This document shows, in pieces, positions 9,669 to 51,155 of a stretch of 53,426 nt of DNA. A model generated the notes under the pieces. It had not been told where the DNA came from and did not search any database. It saw nothing but the letters and a program-made list of their open reading frames with translations. The stretch is from IMG/VR virus record IMGVR_UViG_2541047798_000005, one strand, 5' to 3'. Within the stretch, counting starts at the first letter, position 1. The number at the start of each line of letters is the position of its first letter. The position numbers were made by a program, and so were the translations under genes. Source of the stretch: a virus. Its lineage: Duplodnaviria > Heunggongvirae > Uroviricota > Caudoviricetes.

Positions 9669-9761
9669 GCCTGGAAAACACCAAAACGTAAACAGAAAAC
9701 GTTATTTATTATTTAAATATCAATGGCATATAAAATATTTTAAAAAAGTATACAAAATGGA

Positions 9762-11918: not shown

Positions 11919-12157
11919 TGAGGTTTCAAATCATGATCGAAAAAAAAGATGTTGATAAAGAGCTGCCTGACTCATCTGATGACTATGTCACTTTTAACGG
12001 CGGCCTGTATGAGTTCGAAACGTCTGCCGGGTGGCACGATAAATGGCCTATGCCAACGCGCAAGGAATTAAGCGAACGTAAAACATTTGGCGAAGATGCC
12101 GAACGCCTGGCCAATAACAAATGGCTTGATAAGTTCATTGCGGAGGCTGATAAATGA
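11918..12157 (+). CDS. Hypothetical protein
   Basis: 79 aa; start coupled to upstream stop (TAATG). Confidence 0.4.
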   Translation: MRFQIMIEKKDVDKELPDSSDDYVTFNGGLYEFETSAGWHDKWPMPTRKELSERKTFGEDAERLANNKWLDKFIAEADK

Positions 12158-12273
12158 GCATGGTAAAAATTGCGGCATTAGCCGCCGCCTTCGTTATTGG
12201 GGTGATTTATATCACAGCTTCTTTTTATGTCGCCGTTTTTATTGCTGAATTAATTGTTGCATTGTTGGGGTGA
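12154..12273 (+). CDS. Small hydrophobic membrane peptide (39 aa)
   Basis: ATGA overlap with upstream stop; MSMVKIAALAAAFVIGVIYITASFYVAVFIAELIVALLG. Confidence 0.4.
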   Translation: MSMVKIAALAAAFVIGVIYITASFYVAVFIAELIVALLG

Positions 12274-12276
12274 GTT

Positions 12277-12396
12277 ATGAAGGTTTGCAAGAATATTGTA
12301 AGGGTCGCTTTTTGCGTTATTTGTTTCCTGTTTACGATTGTGTTTTGCGGCGCACTTGCTGCGGTGATTAGCTTTATTTGTAAAGGGGCGATGTGA
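12277..12396 (+). CDS. Small hydrophobic Cys-rich membrane peptide (39 aa)
   Basis: MKVCKNIVRVAFCVICFLFTIVFCGALAAVISFICKGAM; stop overlaps next start. Confidence 0.4.
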   Translation: MKVCKNIVRVAFCVICFLFTIVFCGALAAVISFICKGAM

Positions 12397-12668
12397 TGGT
12401 TACTTGGAATGCAAAAGATGGCGATCTTGTTGTTTTGCCAGAATATCGTAGCGACCCTGGTCTGGTTGTGCTGAACAAGACATATAACGATCTTGAGCGC
12501 CCGATCCTGGTTAAATATCTGGATGGAACGATTATTGAGCCTCGTTTCTTTGACAAGATTGAACTGAAGGCCCGCAATGTTCGCGTTAAGCCGTTCCGGG
12601 ATTATGTTGAAGACCACTGGCGGAAATTGTTTGCCGGGCTGAATGGGATGTACGGCGTATGGCTATAA
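12396..12668 (+). CDS. Hypothetical protein
   Basis: 90 aa from ATG at 12396. Confidence 0.4.
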   Translation: MVTWNAKDGDLVVLPEYRSDPGLVVLNKTYNDLERPILVKYLDGTIIEPRFFDKIELKARNVRVKPFRDYVEDHWRKLFAGLNGMYGVWL

Positions 12669-12850
12669 AATTAGTGAAAGTAAAACACCTGAAAGGCGGT
12701 GAGAAGATCCGCACTTGGTATGGCTATGAGTTTATTATAGCTGCCTTTTCTTTTTTGCCTGGTGGTCAAGTAATATTATTTGATGAGGAAGATGATGAGG
12801 TGGGGAGATGGCATCTTGAACAATATGTTGAGGTGTTAAATGAAAATTAA
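12659..12850 (+). CDS. Hypothetical protein
   Basis: 63 aa ORF. Confidence 0.35.
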   Translation: MAIKLVKVKHLKGGEKIRTWYGYEFIIAAFSFLPGGQVILFDEEDDEVGRWHLEQYVEVLNEN

Positions 12851-13172
12851 ATTACATAAGGCCTATGATAGTCAGACTAACAAGCTATCACTATTTATTG
12901 AGTTCGAACGCCGGATTGTGTGTGTCCCGTGGGCGCGTCGCTTTAATGATGCAGCAGGGCGTAGACAATTCGCTATAGACATGCTGTTACGTGGCTGCGG
13001 CCTTATGCGTCCGCTATCCGATTTAAAACGGATGATGCCTGGATCGTTCGGTCAGATTGATGAAATAGAAATAAGCCCGGAAGAACTGAAACGGGAGCGT
13101 GATTTATTCCTTTCAAGCGAAGGAAACCCGTTTAATTCAGAAACTGAAATGAAATGGCATCATCCACTATAA
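12840..13172 (+). CDS. Hypothetical protein
   Basis: 110 aa ORF. Confidence 0.4.
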   Translation: MKIKLHKAYDSQTNKLSLFIEFERRIVCVPWARRFNDAAGRRQFAIDMLLRGCGLMRPLSDLKRMMPGSFGQIDEIEISPEELKRERDLFLSSEGNPFNSETEMKWHHPL

Positions 13173-13183
13173 GGGTAAATATT

Positions 13184-13804
13184 ATGAACAATATCAAAAC
13201 GGCTTATTCACTCGGCAGCGAAGGCATGTTAATTACTCGCTACACAGAGGACGCGAGCTTTCACGAAGTGGTAACTAAGGATTATCACGAAGTTTTAAAA
13301 GATATGGAAGCAGGAGTGTATGACAGTGACTTAAATCTGGCGCTACAGATTGTCGATATTATGATGAATGCATCAATCCGCGATTACGTGTCTTTAAGCA
13401 TGGAAGAAAAAACATCGGTAGCGCGTTATGTGTTCTGCCTCACTTTCGTAAGACGCATGGAGGAGGAATTCGGACGCGCACCAGTGCCGGAAGATGTTGA
13501 TCCGCTCGCGTTCGGAAGTGCTGTTATTTTCCCGTTGAACAAGGATCTGCTTGTCAGTGTTTCACTGCATTCTATGCGCGGCCTGATGAAAAAGGTCTTT
13601 GAGGTTAAGATGTTGCAGAAATTTATTGAGGAAGGACACGAAGAAGTGAACGTTAAGGCGTTTATTCCGGTGCTTTACGGAAAATTTGTTGGCGATGATA
13701 TGCGCGCTAATGAATTCGGCGTACAGGCGGCTATAGCTACGCTTAACGAAGCAATGAAAAGTGCACAGCCTATTCATGAACAGGAAAAACGTGTACTGCA
13801 TTAA
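13184..13804 (+). CDS. Hypothetical protein
   Basis: 206 aa from ATG at 13184 with AAGGG RBS. Confidence 0.5.
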   Translation: MNNIKTAYSLGSEGMLITRYTEDASFHEVVTKDYHEVLKDMEAGVYDSDLNLALQIVDIMMNASIRDYVSLSMEEKTSVARYVFCLTFVRRMEEEFGRAPVPEDVDPLAFGSAVIFPLNKDLLVSVSLHSMRGLMKKVFEVKMLQKFIEEGHEEVNVKAFIPVLYGKFVGDDMRANEFGVQAAIATLNEAMKSAQPIHEQEKRVLH

Positions 13805-13902
13805 CAGCGTGATTGCGATCACATAAATATACATTTTGTATTGCGATCGCATATCCGTTTTGTAAACTGAAATTAAGAGGTTTACGGCACGGAGGAAACA
13901 AG

Positions 13903-14121
13903 ATGGAACGCGAATTGATGCTTTATTGCGTAGAAGGTGGCGTAGGTCACGATGCCTACGTCGCCGGGAAAGGCTACCCAGCCGATGAAGTGCTTTCTAA
14001 TATGCACTTCAGAGAAAATGAAAGCCAGGTGTCTGTGTGGAAACGGTGCATTGATGGTATTGAGGTTGTAAGTATCGAACGGTATTTAGGCACGTTCGAT
14101 TACGGTGTTATTGAGGCTTAA
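13903..14121 (+). CDS. Hypothetical protein
   Basis: 72 aa from ATG at 13903 with GGAGG RBS; preceded by motif-bearing intergenic region. Confidence 0.45.
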   Translation: MERELMLYCVEGGVGHDAYVAGKGYPADEVLSNMHFRENESQVSVWKRCIDGIEVVSIERYLGTFDYGVIEA

Positions 14122-14219
14122 TTATGGACGACACATTGTTTTATATGTGCTGTTGCTGGGGTTTTATTGCCTTATGTCTGTTTATCAGGTGGTTTATTGA
14201 ATACCATATGAGGTGAGGC

Positions 14220-14414
14220 ATGGAACAGAAAACTGATTATAGAATACCTGACAACCTGAAGTTGGTTGGTATTGGTTTTGGCTGTCATTTTGTATCTGAC
14301 ACAAACGGTGCAATTTATTTAGTGCGCATCATTGATGGCGTTCAGCATATAAGAAGGCTAGGACTTTACATCAAAGCATTCAGAAGGGGTTATTTAAAAA
14401 CTCATGAAATTTAA
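14220..14414 (+). CDS. Hypothetical protein
   Basis: 64 aa ORF. Confidence 0.35.
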   Translation: MEQKTDYRIPDNLKLVGIGFGCHFVSDTNGAIYLVRIIDGVQHIRRLGLYIKAFRRGYLKTHEI

Positions 14415-14607
14415 ACATTACATGGAATGGAAAATTCCAGAAGCAGCAACAAAGGCAGCGCCAGGAAATTATTCTGGCGTTTATTTTTATATGGATGGCA
14501 AATGGTATTTCGGCAGCAGGCCGGATCACTATTATCAGGAAATATGCAAGCCTCACGTATGGGATATTAAAGAGCGTGTGAAAGGCGGGGTAATTGAGGG
14601 CGTTTAA
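14404..14607 (+). CDS. Hypothetical protein
   Basis: 67 aa ORF. Confidence 0.35.
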   Translation: MKFKHYMEWKIPEAATKAAPGNYSGVYFYMDGKWYFGSRPDHYYQEICKPHVWDIKERVKGGVIEGV

Positions 14608-14845
14608 AATGCTTAAGAGCTTTTTTAACTGGTTGGGGGCGTGGCTTTTGGCTACGCTTTTTGTTTTCCTGGCGGCCATGACTGTTATCGGTGTTATTAT
14701 GCTGGGGGCTATTTTTATTACGTGGTCGCTTCCTGAATTTAACGACATTGGGAATATTCTTTTTGCAGCCCGCGCTTTATTGGCTGTTAGCGCATTCATT
14801 GGTTTTTGCTGGACTGCCGCGCCGGATTGGACTGACACATGGTGA
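14594..14845 (+). CDS. Small integral membrane protein
   Basis: 83 aa with two predicted TM segments. Confidence 0.4.
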   Translation: MRAFKMLKSFFNWLGAWLLATLFVFLAAMTVIGVIMLGAIFITWSLPEFNDIGNILFAARALLAVSAFIGFCWTAAPDWTDTW

Positions 14846-14849
14846 TCCT

Positions 14850-15083
14850 ATGGCCTTATTCAATATGTCAGAGCCGCAATTTAACGCCGTAAAGACTGCC
14901 GCCCGCGCCGCGCTTTCGGCCTGCAAAGCGGAGGTAGAGAAGAACGGCTACAGCGATAAAGCCACGCGGCTGATATTAGATAAGCATTATCGCAAGGTCG
15001 CCCCGCTAATCAGTATTGAGCGTTTTGTGTGGTTGGTGGGGTATCTGAATAACCGCTGGGGAACAGATCAGGATTATTTCTAA
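14850..15083 (+). CDS. Hypothetical protein
   Basis: 77 aa from ATG at 14850. Confidence 0.35.
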   Translation: MALFNMSEPQFNAVKTAARAALSACKAEVEKNGYSDKATRLILDKHYRKVAPLISIERFVWLVGYLNNRWGTDQDYF

Positions 15084-15092
15084 GGGGGCGTA

Positions 15093-15632
15093 ATGAAAAA
15101 TGATTACGGCGGCAGCCATACGCCGAAAGAAATAAAGGACTTATGGCAAACGCCAAAACCCGTTTTTAGAGGAATGGATCGAGAATTCGAGTTCGTCGCG
15201 GATGTGGCGGCAAACAAGGCAAACGCATTAATACCGCGATATATAACCGAAGAAATGGACACGCTCCATTATCCGTGGGGAGCGGTGGCGATGCCTGGTG
15301 AGTATGTCTGGATGAATCCGCCATATTCTAATCCGGGGCCATTCGTTGATAAAGCGGCGCTTGAACACAGCCGAAATCATATCGGATGCGTAATGTTATT
15401 GCCCGCTGACATTTCTGTTAGCTGGTTTATGAACGGCGTGGAGACGGCAAACGAATGCCGATTAATCACGCGCGGGCGGCTGGCGTTTATCAATGCTGCA
15501 ACAGGGAAACCAGTAAGCGGGAACAATAAGGGGAGCTTGTTCCTGATCTGGCATCCACGATGCAGACATGAATGTATTTTCACGCAGATAACACGTAAAG
15601 AGCTATATGCAAGAGGTGCAGAAAATGAATAA
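15093..15632 (+). CDS. dam: Phage-type DNA N6-adenine methyltransferase (Dam family)
   Basis: 179 aa; catalytic NPPY motif (VWMNPPYSNPGPF); size and layout of phage Dam family. Confidence 0.8.
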   Translation: MKNDYGGSHTPKEIKDLWQTPKPVFRGMDREFEFVADVAANKANALIPRYITEEMDTLHYPWGAVAMPGEYVWMNPPYSNPGPFVDKAALEHSRNHIGCVMLLPADISVSWFMNGVETANECRLITRGRLAFINAATGKPVSGNNKGSLFLIWHPRCRHECIFTQITRKELYARGAENE

Positions 15633-15945
15633 AGCGGCTGAATTACTGAGACTTGCGGCTGAAACTATCGAGGCAAGAGGGGAGCAAAACGGATACGATC
15701 GAAAAGAAGAAAAATCAGCGCCAAAAATAGCGGCTATTTTCAACGCTAAGATGAATGCGAATTTAACCCCACTTGATGTATGGGATCTAATGATTTGCCT
15801 CAAGGAAGCGCGTTTAGGGGCTATTCTCGCTAATGGAACTGATCCGCTCGACACTCTTATAGACCTTATTGCTTATAACGCGCTTAAGGCCGAACAGATA
15901 TTAGCGTATCGGGAGGAAGAGCTAAATGAAGATGGTGGCAATTGA
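15625..15945 (+). CDS. Hypothetical protein
   Basis: 106 aa from ATG at 15625. Confidence 0.4.
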   Translation: MNKAAELLRLAAETIEARGEQNGYDRKEEKSAPKIAAIFNAKMNANLTPLDVWDLMICLKEARLGAILANGTDPLDTLIDLIAYNALKAEQILAYREEELNEDGGN

Positions 15946-16429
15946 CAGGTTATTAGCCTGCGTTTATGTCGCCGTTTTCGTTATCATCAATCTTATTGTT
16001 AACCACTGTGGCCCGTGGGTAATTCCGATCACCACGGTAGCCGCCGTGTGTGTCAATATGATGATTCGTGATTTTCTGTTATATGACGGCGGCCTTAAAT
16101 GGTCGGCTACAACATGCGCCGCCGCTGGCGCAATCACGGTGCTGATAAATTACGACGCCGGAATGGTGGCGATCGCGTCATTCGTCGCGGTTGTTTCCGG
16201 TGCGCTTATTTCTGGCGGCGTTTACCGGGTTTTACCTGGTGATTTCGATTCTAAACGCTGGCCTGCAAATATAGCGTCCGCCATTGGCGATGCGTTAATT
16301 TTCCCAACGCTATCGTTTATGGCATTCATGCCGGAAATATCAGCTATGCAATTCATCTCAAAAATGGCGGCGGTAACGGTGATCACTATCATCATGCGCC
16401 GCTACTTTACGTTCGAGGGTAGGAAATGA
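15926..16429 (+). CDS. Integral membrane protein, function unknown
   Basis: 167 aa, 4-5 predicted TM helices; GGAGG RBS. Confidence 0.5.
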   Translation: MKMVAIDRLLACVYVAVFVIINLIVNHCGPWVIPITTVAAVCVNMMIRDFLLYDGGLKWSATTCAAAGAITVLINYDAGMVAIASFVAVVSGALISGGVYRVLPGDFDSKRWPANIASAIGDALIFPTLSFMAFMPEISAMQFISKMAAVTVITIIMRRYFTFEGRK

Positions 16430-17190
16430 GTGGGCTTAGAAATTGGGTGGTGTGGTCGCTGTACGACGGCAGCGGATACGCCGTTAAAGATTGGGCCGAC
16501 GCTGGTTATAAATGCTATTGCTTCAACTATGATGGCGCTAATCACGGCGATTATGAAGGCGTCAAAATCATTCATCCGAACATTGAGTATATCAACGTAT
16601 GGATTGACAGCCATTTCCTGGTAATGTTCTCCCCTGAATTGTCTGTTTATCCAGATCCTGACATTATCCTGGGCTTTCCTCCGTGCGACGATCTTGCGGT
16701 GTCCGGCGCTCGCTGGTTTGCTGATAAGCGGAAAAAAGATCCTTACTTCCAGCAGAAGGCGGCATACAACGCAAAACTGGTAGAAACGCTTGCTGATATG
16801 TACCACGTCCCGTGGATGGTGGAAAATCCGGTAGGTGCGCTGTCAACGTTATGGCGCAAACCTGATTTTATCTTCAACCCGTGCGCTTACGGTGGCTACC
16901 TGCCTGAAGACGACAAACACCCTGCTTTCCCTGAATACATAGCTGCCCGCGACGCATACACGAAGAAAACTTGTATCTGGTGCGGGAATGGATTTAAGCA
17001 GCCGCTATTCCGGCCTGTACCTATGCCGGATGAATGGGAAGACAGCAAACAGCACGCGAAGTTAGGAGGAAAGTCGAAACGCACTAAGATGATCCGCTCA
17101 CTAACGCCGCGCGGCTTTGCCCGTGCTGTATTCCTGGCTAACGACCGGGCCATCACTCGTACTACGCTTAACCGCATTTTACCGGACTAA
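16426..17190 (+). CDS. DNA C5-cytosine methyltransferase-like protein with non-canonical PCD motif
   Basis: 254 aa; motif I-like SLYDGSG, motif IV-like GFPPCDDLAVSG (PCD instead of PCQ), motif VI-like MVENPVGAL; too short for a full target-recognition domain. Confidence 0.5.
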   Translation: MSGLRNWVVWSLYDGSGYAVKDWADAGYKCYCFNYDGANHGDYEGVKIIHPNIEYINVWIDSHFLVMFSPELSVYPDPDIILGFPPCDDLAVSGARWFADKRKKDPYFQQKAAYNAKLVETLADMYHVPWMVENPVGALSTLWRKPDFIFNPCAYGGYLPEDDKHPAFPEYIAARDAYTKKTCIWCGNGFKQPLFRPVPMPDEWEDSKQHAKLGGKSKRTKMIRSLTPRGFARAVFLANDRAITRTTLNRILPD

Positions 17191-17348
17191 AGTTTACAAA
17201 ATGGCATCATTGCGTGATGCGGATCACATAATGGCGCTTTTGCCTTGTTTGGTGGTATCCATTTTGTATACTTCAAGCAAACAAAATGCTCTTTAAAAAT
17301 CCGGCAGCGCTGAAATGCGTAGAAATCACCTGAAAAGGAGAGAGCATT

Positions 17349-17525
17349 ATGTCTTTTGATGATTACCAATGGCATGACGACTATGAACGAGAAAGCGTCA
17401 TGCGTGCAATGTGCAATGTATGCAGCACGAAAAAAGGAGAATGTAACGAGTACAACGAATGTGTAGATCACTCGCTAAGGGCCGGACACGCCGAAAGGCT
17501 GAACGAAACAGAGAATCAAAAATAA
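17349..17525 (+). CDS. Small Cys-containing hypothetical protein (58 aa)
   Basis: Not in ORF track; ATG with GGAGAG RBS; follows an inverted-repeat motif pair. Confidence 0.4.
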   Translation: MSFDDYQWHDDYERESVMRAMCNVCSTKKGECNEYNECVDHSLRAGHAERLNETENQK

Positions 17526-17539
17526 TTGGGGTGGTTTTT

Positions 17540-18145
17540 ATGCAAAACCCTAAGAAACCAATAAGACGCCGTTGCAAATGCTGCGGCGTTTTTTTTGAGC
17601 CTAAATATCACAATCAAACGTGGTGCAGCGACGAATGCCTGGAAGAACTGAAATTTGACCAGTTATGCCGCGACCGTGAGAAGGCTATGAAGGCTATGGA
17701 ACGGAAGAAACGCCGTGATAGCCAGCGGGAAGAACGCAACCGGAAGCGGAAGCAGTTAAATCCGCGTAGCTATTGGTTAAAGCAGGCACAAGCGGTATTT
17801 AATGCCTATATCCGCGAACGTGACGCGCGGTTGCCGTGCATATCCTGCGGGACTTACTACGGTGAGCAATGCGGATACGATGCGGGGCATTACAGGACGG
17901 TCGCCGCCGCCGGACACCTTCGCTTCAATGAAGATAACGTCCATAAACAATGTAGGCACTGCAATCAGACATTAGACGGAAACATACAAGCCTATCGCCC
18001 AGCACTGATTCGAAAAATTGGCCTCGCCAGGGTGGAAGCGCTGGAGAACAACAATGATACGCATAAATGGACGATCGCAGAATGTAAGGAGCTAATAAAC
18101 ATCTATCAGGCAAAATTGGACGCCTTAAGGAGAAAGGCAGCATGA
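17540..18145 (+). CDS. ninG: NinG/Rap recombination protein
   Basis: 201 aa; strong similarity to lambda NinG as recalled (RRCKCCG..F.P....Q.WCS.EC; RSYWLKQAQAVFNAYIRERD; HYRTVAAAGHLRFNEDNVHKQC). Confidence 0.85.
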   Translation: MQNPKKPIRRRCKCCGVFFEPKYHNQTWCSDECLEELKFDQLCRDREKAMKAMERKKRRDSQREERNRKRKQLNPRSYWLKQAQAVFNAYIRERDARLPCISCGTYYGEQCGYDAGHYRTVAAAGHLRFNEDNVHKQCRHCNQTLDGNIQAYRPALIRKIGLARVEALENNNDTHKWTIAECKELINIYQAKLDALRRKAA

Positions 18146-29889: not shown

Positions 29890-30003
29890 AAGATGAACAA
29901 GAATAATTCTCAATTGGCTACATAAAATCTGTCTCACAATCCCCCACAAGTTTTTCTATTTTTCGCGTAGCAACGCGTAAACATGTATTCAGGAGTAAAC
30001 ATT

Positions 30004-31374
30004 ATGCCATCCAATTTAGAATTGGCGGTTAATGCTGCCTTGTCACAACGCCAGGCGGCCTTTGCCCGCTATGCAGCCGCTAACCCATTCTCAATGGGTA
30101 TTGATGCAAAACGTGATGCTGCGTGGAGTGAATACGGATTCAAAGAAGAAATCACCTATGCCGATTTATACAAACTGTATCGTCGCGGTGGTATCGCTCA
30201 CGGTGCTATTGAGAAGATCATTACTACGTGCTGGCGCACCAGGCCAACGCTGATTGAAGGTACGGAAGACGAGAAAGCGGAAAAGGAAACTTCGTGGGAA
30301 AGAGAAATCAAAAAACGATTCGACAATAGATTCTGGCGCGTAATTGCTGAATGCGATCGCCGCCGCCTCATCGGTCGTTATGCTGGACTGTTAATTCACG
30401 TCAGGGATAACAAGCCGTGGGATCAGCCAGTAACAAAAGGCGTAGGCATTGCCAAATTTACCCCCGTATGGGCTGGTGCTCTTACACCGAAGGACTTCGA
30501 AGAAAACCCGGATAAAGAAAACTATGGCCTGCCTACATGGTGGGAATACAAGGAGCGCATTAACAGTAAGACCATAGCAAGAAAGATACATCCAGATCGC
30601 ATATTTATCTTCGGTGATTATTCTGATGATGCCATCGCTTTCCTTGAACCGTCCTATAACGCATTCGTTTCACTGGAGAAAGTGGAAGGCGGCAGCGGTG
30701 AATCATTCCTGAAAAACGCAGCACGTCAACTGGCTATCTCGTTCGATAAAGAAATTGATTTCCGTTCTCTGGCTGCAACATACGGTTGCGACGTTACAGA
30801 GCTACGCGAAAAATTCAATGAAGCGGCAGAGGATATAAATAAAGGTAATGATGTGATGATGGCATTACAGGGAGCTACCGTTAGCCCGCTGGTTACTGCC
30901 GTAGCAGATCCTTCCGCTACCTATGACGTCAACCTGCAAACCGCAGCCGCTGGTATCGATATTCCAACGCGTATCCTGGTTGGGAATCAGCAGGGCGAAC
31001 GCGCATCAACCGAAGACCTCCGCTACTTCAATAACCGCTGCATGACCCGCCGTGAGGAAATAGGAGGTGAGCTTGAGGAGCTATTCCGCAAGATGGCAGA
31101 TCTCCGCCTTATCAGTATGCCAGTAGACGTATCTGTACTGTGGGACGACCTTAACGCCATGACAAAAGCAGAGCTACTCGACGCGGCATACAAAATGGCA
31201 CAAATCAATCAGGCATGTCTCGCTACTGGTGAGGAAATATTCAGCGGTGACGAGATCCGCGAAGCTGCCGGATACGATGGCCCGGCTAGTGAGGTAGAAC
31301 TGGAAGAGGAAAACGATGATGAATGTGAAGAAGATAATCAGGCGAATACCTCCAGCCGCGATAATGCCATCTAA
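30004..31374 (+). CDS. Portal protein (putative)
   Basis: 456 aa from ATG at 30004 with AGGAG RBS; position after terminase; acidic C-terminus. Confidence 0.6.
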   Translation: MPSNLELAVNAALSQRQAAFARYAAANPFSMGIDAKRDAAWSEYGFKEEITYADLYKLYRRGGIAHGAIEKIITTCWRTRPTLIEGTEDEKAEKETSWEREIKKRFDNRFWRVIAECDRRRLIGRYAGLLIHVRDNKPWDQPVTKGVGIAKFTPVWAGALTPKDFEENPDKENYGLPTWWEYKERINSKTIARKIHPDRIFIFGDYSDDAIAFLEPSYNAFVSLEKVEGGSGESFLKNAARQLAISFDKEIDFRSLAATYGCDVTELREKFNEAAEDINKGNDVMMALQGATVSPLVTAVADPSATYDVNLQTAAAGIDIPTRILVGNQQGERASTEDLRYFNNRCMTRREEIGGELEELFRKMADLRLISMPVDVSVLWDDLNAMTKAELLDAAYKMAQINQACLATGEEIFSGDEIREAAGYDGPASEVELEEENDDECEEDNQANTSSRDNAI

Positions 31375-36944: not shown

Positions 36945-37421
36945 ATGTCTCAGACTTGCGAAAAAGGCACGTTTACAGGCCGTGACGTTGCTGTATTCTT
37001 CGCTATCGCTTGTCCAAATGCGAAGCCGGAAGCTGAAGCGTACAAAGCGTTAGGCATGATGCGTGGTAAAACACTTTCCGTTGAATGGGAAACCGCTGAC
37101 GCCACCGCCGATAAATCAGCCGATTACACGAAAGAATCAATGGTTACTTACAAATCCGTTTCTTTCTCCGGCGACGGTGTGTCCCGCACTGAAGAAATCC
37201 ATAATCAGAAAGCGCTGAAACGCCACGTAATTACGCCAGGTGAAACCACCGGATCACAACCTTATGTATGGCTGAAGATCGTTTCTCCTGTAGACGTAAC
37301 TGAAGGCCCATTCCTTTGCACTTCCTTTAAAGAAGAAGATCCGCATGATGATGTTTCCACCTGGTCTATTGAGTGCGAAAGCGCTGGCAAGGTAACGGTA
37401 GGCGACGTTCCGCCAGCATAA
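36945..37421 (+). CDS. Major tail protein (putative)
   Basis: 158 aa; strong RBS; followed by hairpin attenuator; position before chaperone and tape measure. Confidence 0.55.
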   Translation: MSQTCEKGTFTGRDVAVFFAIACPNAKPEAEAYKALGMMRGKTLSVEWETADATADKSADYTKESMVTYKSVSFSGDGVSRTEEIHNQKALKRHVITPGETTGSQPYVWLKIVSPVDVTEGPFLCTSFKEEDPHDDVSTWSIECESAGKVTVGDVPPA

Positions 37422-37463: not shown

Positions 37464-37476
37464 TAAGGTGAATACT

Positions 37477-38175
37477 ATGATCCATGTTCGTACAGGACAA
37501 TTTGCTGCCGTGGTGAACGGTAAGCGCTATGAGTTTAATCCTTGCTTTGCTGCGATGGCTAAAATCGGCAACGATAGTGAGCTTGTCGAATATTTCGCAC
37601 TTATCCACGGCGGCAAATATCCATCACGATTGCCAGCAGATCCAGACCTACGCAATCGCATTCTGGCGCGGTGTTATGGTGAAATAGTTAAGACATCAAT
37701 GCACATCCTGAAATGTTGCTCAGACGACGAAATAGGCCCGTTATTGGGCGAATGCTGGTTTACTCCTTCGGGTAAGTTAAAGTTAAAGCCCGGATTAATG
37801 CCGATCGAGGATATCATCACGCTTGCGCAGCACTGCATGTACCACGGTCTTATTGGTGATGGCCCGGAAGAAGAGTCCGGGGAAATCCCGGAAGGGGAAT
37901 ATAAGCCGACTTTTAACGTCCTTGAATTCGTCTATTCTGCCGTTGCTCACCTGGGCTTGTCAGAATCGGAAGCATGGAATATGACAATGACCGGATATAG
38001 GGCCGCTGTACGCGCTAAAACGCCGCCAGACGAAAGAAACGAGAAAAGCAAGCCAAACATTCACATAAATAAACGTGCTTATGACGAGCAAATGGAGGCC
38101 GCTAAAAAGGCACTAGAAAGAATGAAAAATCGTGAGCAAGAAAAGCCCGGTAGATCCGGGCGTTTTGCTAATTGA
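37477..38175 (+). CDS. Tail assembly chaperone (putative)
   Basis: 232 aa from ATG at 37477; located between major tail and tape measure genes. Confidence 0.4.
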   Translation: MIHVRTGQFAAVVNGKRYEFNPCFAAMAKIGNDSELVEYFALIHGGKYPSRLPADPDLRNRILARCYGEIVKTSMHILKCCSDDEIGPLLGECWFTPSGKLKLKPGLMPIEDIITLAQHCMYHGLIGDGPEEESGEIPEGEYKPTFNVLEFVYSAVAHLGLSESEAWNMTMTGYRAAVRAKTPPDERNEKSKPNIHINKRAYDEQMEAAKKALERMKNREQEKPGRSGRFAN

Positions 38176-38542
38176 AATCTTTAATTGCTGTACCTGGTGA
38201 ACTGTGTGTGATTGTATTGTATACAGACTTTGCCTTACTGCGATCTTTCCATTCTTTTAGGATGCAGTTATCAAACTTTGCGATAACCCTTGAAGGGGAT
38301 AATTCTTCAACATCCATGTAAGTAAATCCTATCGTGCTGGTTACTGAATACCATACGTGATAACTATAATTACCGTCATGCTCGATTCTTTGTGGTTCCC
38401 CCATTATTTTATTCACTTGCTCACAAGTCATTCCAACTTGCAAATTTTTATCAGCTAACTTAACGAAATCAGTTGATCTTGCGCACCCTGTAAGAGCTAA
38501 AGCCATAACACCAATGAGAACCGCTTTGATTATTTTTTTCAT
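38168..38542 (-). CDS. Lipoprotein (moron)
   Basis: 124 aa; signal peptide with lipobox LTGC; AAGGGG RBS; opposite strand to tail operon. Confidence 0.65.
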   Translation of the reverse strand: MKKIIKAVLIGVMALALTGCARSTDFVKLADKNLQVGMTCEQVNKIMGEPQRIEHDGNYSYHVWYSVTSTIGFTYMDVEELSPSRVIAKFDNCILKEWKDRSKAKSVYNTITHSSPGTAIKDFN

Positions 38543-38552
38543 GATTTACCCC

Positions 38553-39212
38553 TTAATTCCAGTTGCAAGCGTTTTTCACTTTGTCGATGTGGTTATAAAG
38601 ACCATCAATGTTAAACACTGCTTTCTCAATGTCGCCAGCTTCCGGCACTACTTCAATGATGAATTGTTTTTCGTTAACCAGTTTTTTAATCATTGGGATG
38701 GCTTTTTTGCCGTCCCATAATCCAAGAGCTTTATAATTAGTTGACCGCCACCACTCAGTAGCTACAGCTTTGTGAACGCCGATCCGGTAGTTAATATAAG
38801 TAGTGTCCCCGGCGTCAGTTACATGGTGTGACCATGCTACGAACATTTTTGTTTTATTACCCTGGCAAGCGATTGTTAATACCGGTTTATTCTTATCCTG
38901 TGCCTTCAGTGTCGGGAAAGCATCAAGACTTCCGCTGAATTGTTCTGCTTTCACAAAAAGGAATACGTTTTTTGCGTCCTGCATATCATCTTTTCTTTCA
39001 ACTACAAGCCACTGTTTACCAGCATTTTCTTTTTCTAACTGTGCATCGTATGCGGCTTGTTTTGCTTGTTGTTCTGCAAGCCATTTAGCATTTTTCTCTG
39101 CTAATGCTTGTTGCTCTTGATTGGTCACTATAGGCGCTTTTTCATTATCCTCATTGCAACCAACCAGACCCAATACCGCCGCAATCATTGCCACTTTTGC
39201 TAACCGTTTCAT
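38553..39212 (-). CDS. Lipoprotein (moron)
   Basis: 219 aa; signal peptide with lipobox LVGC; opposite strand to tail operon. Confidence 0.65.
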   Translation of the reverse strand: MKRLAKVAMIAAVLGLVGCNEDNEKAPIVTNQEQQALAEKNAKWLAEQQAKQAAYDAQLEKENAGKQWLVVERKDDMQDAKNVFLFVKAEQFSGSLDAFPTLKAQDKNKPVLTIACQGNKTKMFVAWSHHVTDAGDTTYINYRIGVHKAVATEWWRSTNYKALGLWDGKKAIPMIKKLVNEKQFIIEVVPEAGDIEKAVFNIDGLYNHIDKVKNACNWN

Positions 39213-39258
39213 AACCCACCACGCTAACTTGATTTACTGACCATTCCCTTTAGCTTCC

Positions 39259-39300
39259 TTATACAAAATGGAGTCGTTGAAGTAAAGCCATTTTGTATAA
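39259..39300. promoter_or_regulatory. Perfect 13-bp inverted repeat TTATACAAAATGG-N16-CCATTTTGTATAA; candidate divergent promoter/operator
   Basis: Each arm ends in a TATAA(A/G) -10-like hexamer facing outward toward the tape measure gene (+) and the lipoprotein genes (-). Confidence 0.5.
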
Positions 39301-39339
39301 AATAGATACACAGATCACATTTTTGCATGAGGTTAAATC

Positions 39340-41682
39340 ATGGCTACCAGTGTAGGTACAATTTATTACGAAGTTGATGCGAAAACTGGTCAACTTCTCG
39401 TTGCACAACGACAGGCAGACCAGGCCTTTGATCGTATAGAGCGCGGCGCAAAACAGGCTGACCGCCAGGTAAACACCCTGAAAACATCCATCAAGGCACT
39501 GACCAGGGTTATCCATCTGCTAATTGCTGCGGAGGCTGTGCGCCAATTTATGGATATGGCGGAGCAAGCAAAAATGCTTCGCGTAAAAATCAAAATGCTT
39601 ACGGGCGATGCGGAGTCCGCCGGACGGGTTTTCGACGGCCTGAAAGCAATATCCAGGGAGACGGGGCAGAGCCTGAAAGATACTGGCGAATTATGGCAAG
39701 GCCTGGCTATCTCACTAAAAAACACCTCCGCTACGGAAGGGCAATTGCTTAACCTGGTTGGCACTATTCAGAAAATGGGTGCATTAGGCGGCGCGTCAGC
39801 GGAACAGATGTCTAACTCAATGCGTCAATTCCGTCAGTCTATCGACGGCGGTGTTCTTCGTGCCGAAGAATTTAACAGCCTGCTTGAAAATACGCCGACC
39901 ATCGTACAAACAATGGCCCGCCATATGGGATTATCAATGGGCCAGTTCCGCGCCGAAATGCTGGACGGCAAGATCACGGCTGAAAGGATGGTTAACGCAA
40001 TACAGGCGGCTACGCAGGAAACAAACGATAAGTTTGCTCAGTTGCCGCGCACATCCGGCATGGCTATCAATGAGCTTAAAGTAGAAATTATGGGCCTTGT
40101 TGAGCAGTTGGATGATCTTTTTGGCGTGTCAGATGGCGTTGTTTCAGCTATCGACTTGATCACGAAAGGCGTTAAAGGGCTTGGCGATGGCGCTAAATTC
40201 GCTAAAACCTGCTTCGACACACTCAAAACGGCTGGTAGCGAATTTATCGACATGTTTGATGATGTGGCTGTTAAGGCTGGAGAGGTGGCAGAGAAGATCA
40301 TCGCAATGGTGACGCCAATCAAGGCGCTAATGGATGGCTATAAATGGATGAAGGAGGTAGTAGGAGAGCAAACCGACGAATATAACAGCAACTACGAGAA
40401 GAAATACGGGAAGACCGTTGGCAAGGTCATGCAACTACAGGATGATCTGACCGCAGCAATCCAGGCTACAGAAGAAGCAAGGAAAAATGAACAGAATGCT
40501 GCCAATGACGGAGCGATTACCGGATTCGACAAGCCAGTAGACAAGCCGAAAAAACAGAAAAAAGAGAAGAAATCGGAAGCTGATCGGCTTGGTGACAAAG
40601 GTATAAGCGTTTCTGATCAGTACAACAAAGACGCCGCCGCCATGCGCAAAGCGTTGGAGAACGGCAAGGCCATTGATGCTGCATTTGCCCAGGGTAAAAT
40701 CACGCTCCTTGAGTACCGCGCCGCGCAAAAAGGGATCGGCAAGGAACTGAAAGAAGAATTAGCACAAATTCCGGTAGATGAATTGCGTGATAAATGGTCA
40801 CAAATAGTAAGCCCGATGGATCAGCTAAAAGGCGAAGTTGACCCCATCCAGCAGGCGCAAAATGAATGGGCCATCCGTAAGCAAATGCTTATAGACCTGG
40901 GCGCTACTGAAGCGCAACAGAAACAGGAATTGTTAGCCTATGAGCAACAGATCCGCGATCTGAAATGGGAACAATGGCAGGCGCAAAGCGACACAAACGG
41001 CCTTATCGGTGATTGTGTTAATGGCCTTAAAGGCGGAATGAGTAATGCGCTTGTTGGCCTGTTAAACGGCACTCAATCATTGAGTGATGTTTTTGCTAAC
41101 TTAGGAAGCAATATACTCGGCAATATCGGTAACAGACTCTCAGACATAGCTGCAAACTGGATAGCAGATCAGATCATGATGGAGACACAAAGCAAGGCCA
41201 CGCAAACAAGTACAACAGCAAGCGCGGTAGCAGCTCAGGGAAGCATTGCTGCGGCGGCGGCCCCAGCAGCGGCGGCAACTGCGGCGTCAACTGGCGGTAG
41301 CTGGGCGGCGGCTGGTTCGGCGGCGCTCACTGCGATCATGTCGCTGGCTACGTCAATTTTCGGCGGCGGTCGCTTTAATGGTGGTAGCGTCATTGGTGGT
41401 AATATGTACCGCGTAGGGGAACACAACAGGCCGGAGCTATTCCAGACATCTAACGGCAATCAATATATGATCCCTGGCGAGAACGGCAGAGTTATTCCGG
41501 GCCGTGATATTGGCGGCGGTGGCGGTATTAGTATGCCTGTCAGTATCAGCATTCAGACCACGAACGGATTCAGCGACGAAGACAGCCGCAGACTTGAATT
41601 AACAATGGAACGTGTAGCCATGAAAATGATAACAAGGGAATCTCAAAGACCAGGCGGAATGTTGCAACCTCGCCGCAAATAA
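39340..41682 (+). CDS. H: Tail tape measure protein
   Basis: 780 aa; extended alpha-helical region and Gly/Ala-rich segment; followed by lambda-type M, L, K, I, J. Confidence 0.85.
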   Translation: MATSVGTIYYEVDAKTGQLLVAQRQADQAFDRIERGAKQADRQVNTLKTSIKALTRVIHLLIAAEAVRQFMDMAEQAKMLRVKIKMLTGDAESAGRVFDGLKAISRETGQSLKDTGELWQGLAISLKNTSATEGQLLNLVGTIQKMGALGGASAEQMSNSMRQFRQSIDGGVLRAEEFNSLLENTPTIVQTMARHMGLSMGQFRAEMLDGKITAERMVNAIQAATQETNDKFAQLPRTSGMAINELKVEIMGLVEQLDDLFGVSDGVVSAIDLITKGVKGLGDGAKFAKTCFDTLKTAGSEFIDMFDDVAVKAGEVAEKIIAMVTPIKALMDGYKWMKEVVGEQTDEYNSNYEKKYGKTVGKVMQLQDDLTAAIQATEEARKNEQNAANDGAITGFDKPVDKPKKQKKEKKSEADRLGDKGISVSDQYNKDAAAMRKALENGKAIDAAFAQGKITLLEYRAAQKGIGKELKEELAQIPVDELRDKWSQIVSPMDQLKGEVDPIQQAQNEWAIRKQMLIDLGATEAQQKQELLAYEQQIRDLKWEQWQAQSDTNGLIGDCVNGLKGGMSNALVGLLNGTQSLSDVFANLGSNILGNIGNRLSDIAANWIADQIMMETQSKATQTSTTASAVAAQGSIAAAAAPAAAATAASTGGSWAAAGSAALTAIMSLATSIFGGGRFNGGSVIGGNMYRVGEHNRPELFQTSNGNQYMIPGENGRVIPGRDIGGGGGISMPVSISIQTTNGFSDEDSRRLELTMERVAMKMITRESQRPGGMLQPRRK

Positions 41683-41768: not shown

Positions 41769-42023
41769 TCACTTATGAGTGCCTTTCACGCCACATAACT
41801 TGTTATAGGCATGGTGCTCAACAATTAACCAAACCTTCAAATCTTCGCTAAACAGCCTCCAATCAAGATTGATATCCATTTTGTATCCGTAACCGTCGCG
41901 TAACTTTTTGGGGTAAACTTCTTTTCTCAGAAAGGCTTTAAGTAATTCCTTACCTTTCTTGATGATCCGGTCCTGTGCGTTTTTCTGTGCTTTCAGATTT
42001 CTGTCAATCGCTACCAGTTTCAT
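41769..42023 (-). CDS. Small basic protein, candidate toxin-like component of a two-gene cassette
   Basis: 84 aa; 17 nt downstream of a 51-aa ORF on the same strand; family not confidently assigned. Confidence 0.35.
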   Translation of the reverse strand: MKLVAIDRNLKAQKNAQDRIIKKGKELLKAFLRKEVYPKKLRDGYGYKMDINLDWRLFSEDLKVWLIVEHHAYNKLCGVKGTHK

Positions 42024-42040
42024 AACTCACCCCATCATCC

Positions 42041-42196
42041 TTAGTTAAGTGCCTTCAGGAAGAAGTCCCGGTATTCATCTTCTTTCGCATTCATCATGAA
42101 TTGACCGTATTTGAATGCGTCGTCGAAACCCTTAACGATTGCTATTTCCACTTGTTCGAATGCGTTATTTAGCATTACTACTACATAGCGTTTCAT
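42041..42196 (-). CDS. Small protein (51 aa), candidate antitoxin-like partner
   Basis: Not in ORF track; ATG with GGAGG RBS; candidate promoter TTCACA-17-TATATA upstream on minus strand. Confidence 0.35.
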   Translation of the reverse strand: MKRYVVVMLNNAFEQVEIAIVKGFDDAFKYGQFMMNAKEDEYRDFFLKALN

Positions 42197-43328: not shown

Positions 43329-43676
43329 TTATTTATCGAATGCTGAAAGGTTATCGATACAGAAATCTTTCGCCGCTTTTTCGTATTCGCGTTTTGCTTC
43401 TGGATCGTCAGCCGGGAAACCTTTTGCGTGTATTTCACCAGGGCAAGACTGGTCCATAGAATCTGCATAATAAGCAGTGAAGCTACCATTAATATCTTTC
43501 GGGTTCATATCTTCCACCTCATCAACTATCTGTACCGGATTAGCAGCATATTTCACTGGATGGCCTAAACTACATTCAAGAATCCTGCCTTCTTCCAGGG
43601 CTACTTCTTCGCTATCAAATAATCCGAAACACTCCTTGCTACCACTTAACCACACATCAAGACTGTATTTTTTCAT
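43329..43676 (-). CDS. Hypothetical protein (moron cassette gene 2)
   Basis: 115 aa from ATG at 43676 with GAGG RBS. Confidence 0.45.
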   Translation of the reverse strand: MKKYSLDVWLSGSKECFGLFDSEEVALEEGRILECSLGHPVKYAANPVQIVDEVEDMNPKDINGSFTAYYADSMDQSCPGEIHAKGFPADDPEAKREYEKAAKDFCIDNLSAFDK

Positions 43677-43845
43677 TTTTGTTAGCCTCATATTTGACAG
43701 GTTCGATCTGGTATCCCAAAAGGCGGTCATCCTCAGCAAGTAAAAGCGCGTCAACCAATGCTTCACCCTCGTCGTCATACAGGGCGATAACCTTTTCCCT
43801 ACCGTCTGTCATGAATACCGTCAACTTCCATAGCTTTTCAGTCAT
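43657..43845 (-). CDS. Hypothetical small acidic protein (moron cassette gene 1)
   Basis: 62 aa from ATG at 43845 with GGAGG RBS; overlaps gene 2 start by 20 nt. Confidence 0.4.
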   Translation of the reverse strand: MTEKLWKLTVFMTDGREKVIALYDDEGEALVDALLLAEDDRLLGYQIEPVKYEANKNEKIQS

Positions 43846-43974
43846 AACGCACCTCCGCGCCATTTTGTTAACTATGCTTCCGTTTGAGTAAAATATACAT
43901 ATTGTAAAAACCGCGATCAATCCATTTTGGTATGATTTAGCGTGACGCAGATCACAGAATGACAAGGTGAGAAA

Positions 43975-50909: not shown

Positions 50910-51155
50910 TTATTTTTTACACCCATCATTTACACCAGAAAAATGGATAGGTAAATTACATTCACTGTCAATAATTTTACCTTGTAGTTGTTTTTCTTTC
51001 CATGAGTCAGTATTGAAATAACTCGAACGTTGGTTATCAAGGCCAGTATCACCATATTGAGCAGTGCCAGCATCACTCTTATCTGTCGAATTTACAGAAG
51101 CAAAAGCACCAAAAGACAGAGCTGATAAGATGCAAGCAACAATTAGTTTTTTCAT
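50910..51155 (-). CDS. Small secreted protein (moron)
   Basis: 81 aa from ATG at 51155; Sec signal peptide MKKLIVACILSALSFGAFA; two Cys near C-terminus. Confidence 0.5.
   Translation of the reverse strand: MKKLIVACILSALSFGAFASVNSTDKSDAGTAQYGDTGLDNQRSSYFNTDSWKEKQLQGKIIDSECNLPIHFSGVNDGCKK

Follow-up and report, generated by a model that had tools for sequence, protein, structure and literature searches.

The 53,426-nucleotide stretch of viral DNA that was analyzed here as a whole (IMG/VR record IMGVR_UViG_2541047798_000005; hereafter the window) is an essentially complete prophage that belongs to the temperate E. coli siphophages of the mEpimmI (mEp021-like) group. It contains a dedicated cargo slot between its DUF6246 gene and its tape-measure gene, and the segment that fills this slot is a two-gene moron cassette encoding two predicted lipoproteins, lipoA and lipoB. 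By analogy, we tentatively favor a role of both proteins in an envelope-level defense of the lysogen (superinfection exclusion, Sie) that would act after adsorption. The features of the locus are as follows (aa, amino acid residues; nt, nucleotides).

36945-37421, tail tube gene, left flank
37468-38175, plus strand, DUF6246 gene (Pfam PF19759, E 4e-54; phrog_791), left flank, at the position of a tail assembly chaperone
38145-38161, both strands, bidirectional intrinsic terminator, GCCCGG-loop-CCGGGC with T-runs on both strands
38168-38542, minus strand, lipoA, predicted 124-aa lipoprotein, MKKIIKAVLIGVMALALTGC followed by A
38553-39212, minus strand, lipoB, predicted 219-aa lipoprotein, MKRLAKVAMIAAVLGLVGC followed by N
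39258-39286, minus strand, candidate sigma-70 promoter from a lenient scan, -35 TTTACT (39286-39281), 17-nt spacer, -10 TATAAG (39263-39258)
39259-39271 and 39288-39300, inverted repeat, two perfect 13-nt arms spaced by 16 nt, 5' boundary of the slot
39340-41682, plus strand, tape-measure gene (Pfam TMP_3, E 1e-49; phrog_1538, E 2e-159), right flank

The cassette and its cargo slot

The two minus-strand open reading frames (ORFs) lie exactly where the initial annotation had placed them, antisense to the tail genes on both sides. They are separated by 10 nt, and lipoA, at its stop codon, runs 8 nt into the end of the DUF6246 gene. Both are subject to purifying selection, with ratios of nonsynonymous to synonymous substitution rates (dN/dS) of 0.20-0.26 and 0.07-0.10, and hence they are real genes. 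The insertion had been described as lying between a tail chaperone gene and the tape-measure gene; the latter is correct, and the former is a positional assignment of the DUF6246 family, which has no assigned function.

The flanks of the locus are 81-88% identical to those of the phages mEp013, mEp044, mEp554, mEp010, mEp515, mEp021 and MagusPhagus, and chromosomal prophages in E. coli genomes match the locus region at 100% identity. The whole lipoA-lipoB cassette is present in 14 of 5426 complete genomes, in one of which the prophage is integrated at abgT, and it comes from human, food and animal E. coli isolates. The cassette has the hallmarks of a moron. The cargo varies between conserved flanks in eight sequenced phages and in about 45 IMG/VR contigs; the guanine-plus-cytosine (GC) content of the cassette is 37-42% vs 47-51% in the flanks, with inverted strand skews; and the cassette has a terminator of its own. 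The two lipoprotein genes are prophage-borne morons in an independent antisense unit, in agreement with the earlier description of lipoprotein genes transcribed against the tail operon.

A census of the slot took in 76 IMG/VR loci with a gene for a DUF6246 relative. None of about 45 close relatives has an empty slot: each carries 650-1285 bp of minus-strand cargo, which belongs to at least eight unrelated families, all but one of them with a lipobox, a Sec signal or transmembrane segments. The families comprise three of lipoproteins and at least three of Sec-signal proteins, besides a pair of membrane proteins and a 106-aa protein that is not exported. In DUF6246 phages that are only distantly related, the DUF6246 and tape-measure genes directly adjoin, the gap between them being -12 to about 100 bp. 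The minus-strand cargo of named phages is as follows.

mEp013: lipoA homologue and a 59-aa membrane protein
mEp021, mEp010 and MagusPhagus: 138-aa Sec-signal protein
mEp515: 119-aa Sec-signal protein
mEp044 and mEp554: 100-aa and 35-aa membrane proteins

A closer comparison of the cargo shows that lipoB is always the tape-measure-proximal gene of the slot, but its partner changes. Among the 18 lipoB-bearing contigs first fetched, the partner is lipoA in nine and the 106-aa protein in eight, and lipoB stands alone in the remaining one. Likewise, lipoA pairs with three other partners besides lipoB. Hence, the two genes are independent modules, and an obligate lipoA-lipoB pair is ruled out. A 245-aa lipoprotein of locus L125, considered as a possible lipoA-lipoB fusion, was rejected since its similarity is confined to the signal peptide. 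As a whole, the slot has the pattern expected for a conflict locus that is hypervariable.

In the slot's first gene, a near-identical signal-peptide start (MKRLAK, MKRLIK, MKRLVK and the like) precedes unrelated mature proteins. This start is common to lipoB (39156-39212, minus strand) and to Sec proteins of 116, 117, 138, 139 and 165 aa (loci L099, L100, L103, L113 and L004), and such a distribution suggests that cassettes may be exchanged with a junction inside the signal-peptide coding region. Two further observations concern the content of the slot. A conserved mini-ORF of approximately 27 aa, MKNYYRPNEHEHYADFIEEMLKALKNKK, which has a strong ribosome-binding site, is common to MagusPhagus, mEp044, mEp021 and mEp515, where it lies on the minus strand between the inverted repeat and the differing cargo genes (L002, approximately 3830-3750; L003, L004 and L005); neither the window nor mEp013 has it. 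Distant environmental DUF6246 phages (L134, L136 and L140; 3346-3702, plus strand) carry a different 118-aa lipoprotein gene (MKKxxAxA...L[AS]GC) between the DUF6246 and tape-measure genes, on the same strand as the tail genes, and therefore this junction attracts lipoprotein cargo in other lineages too.

Both ends of the slot are fixed. The terminator, which forms the 3' boundary of the cassette, lies 7 nt beyond the lipoA stop codon and falls within the final codons of the DUF6246 gene. All eight sequenced relatives have kept it, and the annotations of mEp013, mEp021, mEp044, mEp515 and mEp010 list it as a terminator. At the other end, a 127-nt gap that contains the inverted repeat separates lipoB from the tape-measure gene. 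As the repeat is invariant whatever the cargo, both in the eight relatives that were compared and in each related locus retrieved, it is part of the backbone and not of the insert. It is built from a dispersed motif, T[AT]TACAAAATG[GT], present in two inverted copies, and is probably a regulatory or promoter-associated site common to all cargo variants. A role as an RNA hairpin was rejected: the folding z-scores of -1.3 (plus strand) and -0.06 (minus strand) are not distinctive, and the arms are invariant.

The initial annotation placed the promoter of the cassette in the 39259-39300 palindrome. The repeat itself is real, but it belongs to the backbone, and a standard sigma-70 scan found no promoter in the gap upstream of lipoB. 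The best candidate, which comes from the lenient scan, matches the consensus at 9 of 12 positions and is weak, as it lacks the critical T at -7. It is found at the same position in six phages, mEp013, MagusPhagus, mEp044, mEp021 and mEp515 among them. A promoter in or at the inverted repeat is thus plausible from the sequence and fits the logic of a conserved boundary.

The core of the dispersed motif, TACAAAATG, occurs 16 times in the window vs 1.1 times expected, a count reached in none of 100 shuffles, and the 12-mer T[AT]TACAAAATG[GT] with at most one mismatch occurs 22 times vs 2.0 expected. The core copies are at positions 2199, 5124, 6263, 8908, 9751, 10430, 13832, 14286, 17195, 17260, 31189, 39262, 39289, 41877, 42268 and 42338. 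They lie mostly in short intergenic gaps, in either orientation and often 20-30 nt 5' of a ribosome-binding site, and there is a copy in every divergent gap between the antisense islands and the tail genes. The copy at 9751 abuts a near-consensus promoter (TTGACT-17-TATATT), and another copy is found upstream of the validated exclusion gene gp81 (Lpp) of mEp021 (L008, 12949-12957). The motif is not described in the account of this phage group (PMC11893012), and it is probably the site of a phage regulator. Its interpretation as a simple -35 box was discarded, as no correctly spaced -10 box could be seen by eye downstream of the TTTACA and TATACA copies.

A second recurrent element, ACA(C/T)AGATCACA, which contains GATC and a TGTGA-like half site, is present in the window at 39310-39319, near 43.93 kb and near 51.30 kb, and in L008 near 12980. 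It lies 20-60 nt 5' of each plus-strand tail gene start that follows an antisense island, and ATCACA is invariant in the eight-phage alignment. This element could be part of a restart or late-promoter element.

Predicted products of lipoA and lipoB

As the initial annotation had noted, both products have a signal peptide with a lipobox. In each, the n-region is positive, the h-region is hydrophobic and the lipobox conforms to [LVI][ASTVI][GAS]C, and lipidation of both proteins is predicted. The signal peptide of lipoA (MKKIIK-AVLIGVMALA-LTGC) ends in the lipobox LTGC with Cys20 and an alanine at position +2, and that of lipoB (MKRLAK-VAMIAAVLG-LVGC) ends in LVGC with Cys19 and an asparagine at +2. 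The lipobox cysteine and the glycine that precedes it are invariant in all homologues of both proteins. According to the +2 rule of Lol sorting, lipoproteins with a residue other than aspartate at +2 are directed to the outer membrane. Hence, the sequence predicts that both proteins should be anchored in the outer membrane and face the periplasm. One lipoB variant has an aspartate at this position. Both proteins also contain a conserved cysteine pair (Cys40/Cys93 in lipoA and Cys116/Cys216 in lipoB), which is consistent with the oxidizing periplasmic compartment.

The lipoA protein is predicted to contain a BamE/OsmE/BLIP-like alpha-beta domain. Its match to PF04355 (BamE/SmpA-OmlA) covers residues 33-51 only and scores 18.9 bits vs the threshold of 23.2 bits, and its only match in PHROGs is phrog_18614. 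An exhaustive profile search of 1.84 billion representatives returned two close clusters, and the weak matches were BamE-domain lipoproteins. The lipoA family is a near-orphan one, which is confined to mEpimmI-type prophages. With BamE/SmpA-OmlA, OsmE and BLIP-like proteins (PF04355 and relatives), lipoA has in common a GMT..eV..i.G.P motif and the general type of a small outer-membrane lipoprotein, and it would share their fold class; it differs from them in its score below the Pfam threshold and in its narrow distribution. The mature protein would thus be a small domain of the BamE/OsmE/BLIP type, a scaffold that is often a protein binder or inhibitor.

The AlphaFold2 (AF2) model of lipoB, with a predicted local distance difference test (pLDDT) score of 71, comprises a disordered linker of low confidence, a long helix at approximately residues 31-63 and a VasI/IalB-like beta-sandwich at approximately residues 69-215. 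In this model, lipoB would present a beta-sandwich of the VasI/TagO/IalB type on a helical stalk. The protein scores 58.1 bits vs the Pfam VasI threshold of 26.5 (PF11319, formerly DUF3121; profile positions 25-184 of 184), but it is well below the cutoff of TIGR03360, the VasI/TagO equivalog of type VI secretion systems (T6SS) (47.4 vs 124.2 bits). Besides the near-full Pfam profile, it shares with VasI/TagO (VCA0118) export, a cysteine pair and a C-terminal ACNW motif, and it differs in its lack of a T6SS locus and in having a lipobox and a helix in place of the N-terminal Cys-motif region. None of the more than 25 loci examined has a T6SS gene cluster beside it; the genes lie instead in tail, immunity or prophage-end regions. 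The PGAP label of lipoB, 'T6SS-associated protein TagO', is therefore a family name that does not reflect context, and it is misleading for prophage copies. The lipoB clade is small and confined to E. coli prophages: no member was found in GTDB species-representative genomes, and a third word-index search with the lipoB alignment gave no further relatives.

Searches of Pfam, PHROGs and PADLOC matched neither protein to a Sie or defense family. Sequence searches of the PDB with both family profiles gave chance-level matches only, and a fold search of BFVD returned uncharacterized phage proteins only.

Exported VasI-family proteins recur at lysogeny-type positions in unrelated temperate phages, which is a new observation. 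In Brucella phage BiPBO1 such a gene lies directly downstream of a CI-like repressor gene, and in a Labrenzia phage it is found beside CI/repressor genes. In P2-like phages it follows ogr at the end of the prophage and is paired with a zinc-ribbon membrane protein, and a P2-phage homologue also weakly matches Pfam IalB. In Pasteurella phage Pmp14, the VasI-family gene Pmp14_0015 is part of an eight-gene accessory island at the chaperone/tape-measure position (12058-17795 of the phage record; L046/L048).

The P2-like pair (L042, 3358-4588; L043 and L044) consists of a 110-aa zinc-ribbon protein with two transmembrane segments and a 297-aa VasI-family protein with a Sec signal and three (R/K)LxCYD repeats; the pair is conserved and lies next to the attachment end. 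Pmp14 is a siphophage unrelated to the mEpimmI group. The neighbor of its VasI-family gene, Pmp14_0014, encodes a 652-aa protein with HATPase_c_3 and PD-(D/E)XK domains that resembles a defense enzyme. These domains rule it out as the tape-measure gene, which is located further on.

Possible functions of the cassette

The initial annotation proposed the two lipoproteins as candidates for masking the receptor in the manner of Cor or Llp. In such a mechanism, one or both would bind the outer-membrane receptor of this or related phages from its periplasmic side and prevent adsorption or triggering, as is the case for Cor and Llp with FhuA and, in this phage group, for Lpp010 and Lpp021. Indeed, Cor (phi80/N15/HK022), Llp (T5) and Lpp021/Lpp010, the last two from the same phage group, are also prophage lipobox proteins encoded antisense in the tail region. 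Such a mechanism would agree with the predicted outer-membrane location of both products, with the same J C-terminus in most lipoB-bearing contigs, and with the absence of an Lpp-type lipoprotein from this prophage, which could leave an exclusion niche to be filled otherwise. However, the known proteins have approximately 70-80 residues, are encoded beside J and match the receptor type, whereas lipoA and lipoB are larger, unrelated to Lpp021 or to any Sie family in Pfam, PHROGs or PADLOC, and encoded beside the tape-measure gene. The validated Lpp021 and Lpp010 (approximately 72-82 aa) are encoded after J and match the receptor type OmpA or LamB, and an Lpp-type lipoprotein follows J in 83% of the mEpimmI group (PMC11893012). 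In BLASTP comparisons, which were made with Lpp021 and not directly with Cor or Llp, lipoB gave an E value of 5.8 and lipoA no alignment.

The distribution of the genes also speaks against receptor masking. Type-C Lpp occurs together with lipoB in contigs 2617270943_000003 and 3300045988_106735, in which lipoB is 92-93% identical, and together with lipoA in contig 3300010283_000003; mEp013, a carrier of the lipoA homologue, has a type-C Lpp as well (PMC11893012). Hence, lipoA and lipoB are not substitutes for Lpp. Furthermore, lipoB is found with at least three different types of J C-terminus, and an identical J C-terminus is found with other slot cargo. The cassette, located 11 kb from the C-terminus of J, does not co-vary with J and is not beside the receptor-binding gene. 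The after-J position of window-type phages holds a different exported protein of 81 aa, which is listed below. We therefore consider it quite unlikely that the two lipoproteins mask a receptor, and the Cor/Llp part of the earlier proposal is not supported. An assignment of the receptor from the J C-terminus was rejected, as this is at most 48% identical to known J proteins.

Exclusion of phages at the envelope, which the initial annotation had also proposed, nevertheless remains the single most likely function, and the census of the slot, the modularity of its cargo, the anatomy of the cassette, the conservation of the lipobox and the cysteines, the purifying selection on both genes, and the recurrence of exported VasI-family proteins at lysogeny-type positions all support it. 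In this tentatively favored role, lipoA and lipoB would be made in the lysogen and, from the periplasm, would interfere with tail-tip penetration or tape-measure-dependent DNA delivery of incoming phages. The outer-membrane receptor would not be masked, and each of the two proteins would work alone.

Two known systems serve as the closest analogies, one by position and one by fold. By the account of Cumby et al. 2012 that is given in PMC3594210, the HK97 gp15 moron blocks DNA injection and not the receptor, and its effect depends on the tail of the incoming phage. Like the cassette, and according to the same account, it lies between the chaperone and tape-measure genes, forms an accessory transcription unit of deviating GC content that is present or absent among relatives, and has an envelope product. 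In type, gp15 is resembled by the 100-aa and 35-aa membrane proteins that occupy the slot of sister phages. As that account describes it, gp15 is a small inner-membrane YebO-like protein, whereas lipoA and lipoB are lipoproteins of other families in an antisense unit, and sequence homology to gp15/YebO is not expected. The second analogy, SDIC4B, is a protein with a VasI-like fold that alone is reported to give 10-200-fold protection against phages (bioRxiv 10.1101/2024.01.28.577318), and therefore a VasI-type fold can serve phage defense. Like lipoB, with which it is compared by its reported fold, SDIC4B is found outside T6SS loci. However, it belongs to chromosomal BrxR-associated defense islands of Serratia and Enterobacteria, whereas lipoB lies in a phage tail slot, and there is no BrxR-like gene near the cassette.

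Several points weigh against a role in phage exclusion. The step from a location beside the tape-measure gene to a target in tape-measure-dependent entry is one of analogy, and the likeness to SDIC4B extends to the reported fold only. The only known phenotype of the VasI family concerns T6SS killing and not phages (PMC3166118). The PADLOC scan matched neither protein, and the promoter of the cassette is weak by consensus.

That phenotype leads to an alternative in interbacterial competition. As a VasI/TagO-like protein, lipoB might enhance T6SS killing by the host or modulate how a tail-like spike crosses the envelope; alternatively, lipoA and/or lipoB might be orphan periplasmic immunity proteins or inhibitors directed against T6SS or other muralytic toxins. 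In agreement with this, lipoB scores above the Pfam VasI threshold, and V. cholerae VasI is exported and needed for killing but dispensable for Hcp/VgrG secretion (PMC3166118). Yet the score of lipoB is below the equivalog cutoff, no T6SS cluster accompanies any of the loci examined, there is no adjacent toxin gene, and the function of TagO in the T6SS itself is listed as unknown (PMC13584744). We regard a function in competition as quite unlikely, too. Somewhat less so, but still unlikely, is a general lysogenic conversion in which the cassette would improve host fitness, for instance by tolerance of osmotic or envelope stress (OsmE/BamE-like), resistance to serum (Bor-like) or adhesion and invasion (IalB-like). 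The fold neighbors OsmE, BamE and IalB are compatible with it, as is the presence of the cassette in human, food and animal isolates, and morons often encode such factors (PMC3594210). However, the families are tiny and confined to prophages, and the extreme turnover of cargo at a fixed slot of one phage lineage fits an arms race better. Finally, the location of the genes within the tail module might point to a role in the phage's own lytic cycle, such as envelope remodeling for lysis or tail assembly. The genes, however, run against the late operon and end at a terminator of their own. Sister phages dispense with them and carry unrelated genes in their place, and the slot is absent in distant relatives. 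Such a role is very improbable.

A broader extension of the exclusion role, which we hold to be doubtful, would be that exported VasI/TagO-fold proteins are widespread prophage periplasmic blockers of tail-tip penetration or DNA delivery, with lipoB being lipid-anchored on its helical stalk, and this would hint that the VasI of the T6SS influences how the phage-tail-like spike crosses the envelope. The slot would then be a hypervariable hotspot for exported defense proteins, in which cargo is swapped between the fixed repeat and the fixed terminator by recombination that is possibly anchored in the MKRLAK start.

Prophage morons with envelope lipoproteins are a known kind, lipoB already bears the TagO label of PGAP, and the paper on the mEpimmI group deals with exclusion lipoproteins, though with neither these two proteins nor this slot. 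New are the definition of an always-occupied hypervariable slot for exported proteins and the evidence that lipoA and lipoB are not analogues of Cor, Llp or Lpp. If they do exclude phages, two new families, one with a VasI/TagO fold and the other with a BamE/BLIP fold, would join the short list of envelope-level exclusion factors, and the poorly understood VasI family would gain its first mechanistic handle. In addition, the slot is a ready panel for envelope-acting defense and conversion functions: the phage group is common in the human gut, and the unrelated exported proteins that the slot carries number at least eight.

Other cargo of the prophage

Apart from the lipoA-lipoB cassette, the tail module contains three antisense cargo islands.

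41769-42196, minus strand, ParE-like toxin-like gene and a small ORF
43329-43965, minus strand, KilAC-antirepressor-like gene and small ORFs
50910-51155, minus strand, 81-aa Sec-signal protein, MKKLIVACILSALSFGAFA followed by S, exactly where sister phages encode a validated Lpp

Outside of these islands, a 456-aa protein encoded at the portal position between the large terminase and the minor head protein (approximately 29983-31374; L041, 7929-9299) is labeled by PGAP as 'anti-CBASS protein Acb1 family protein', an automatic name that looks questionable.

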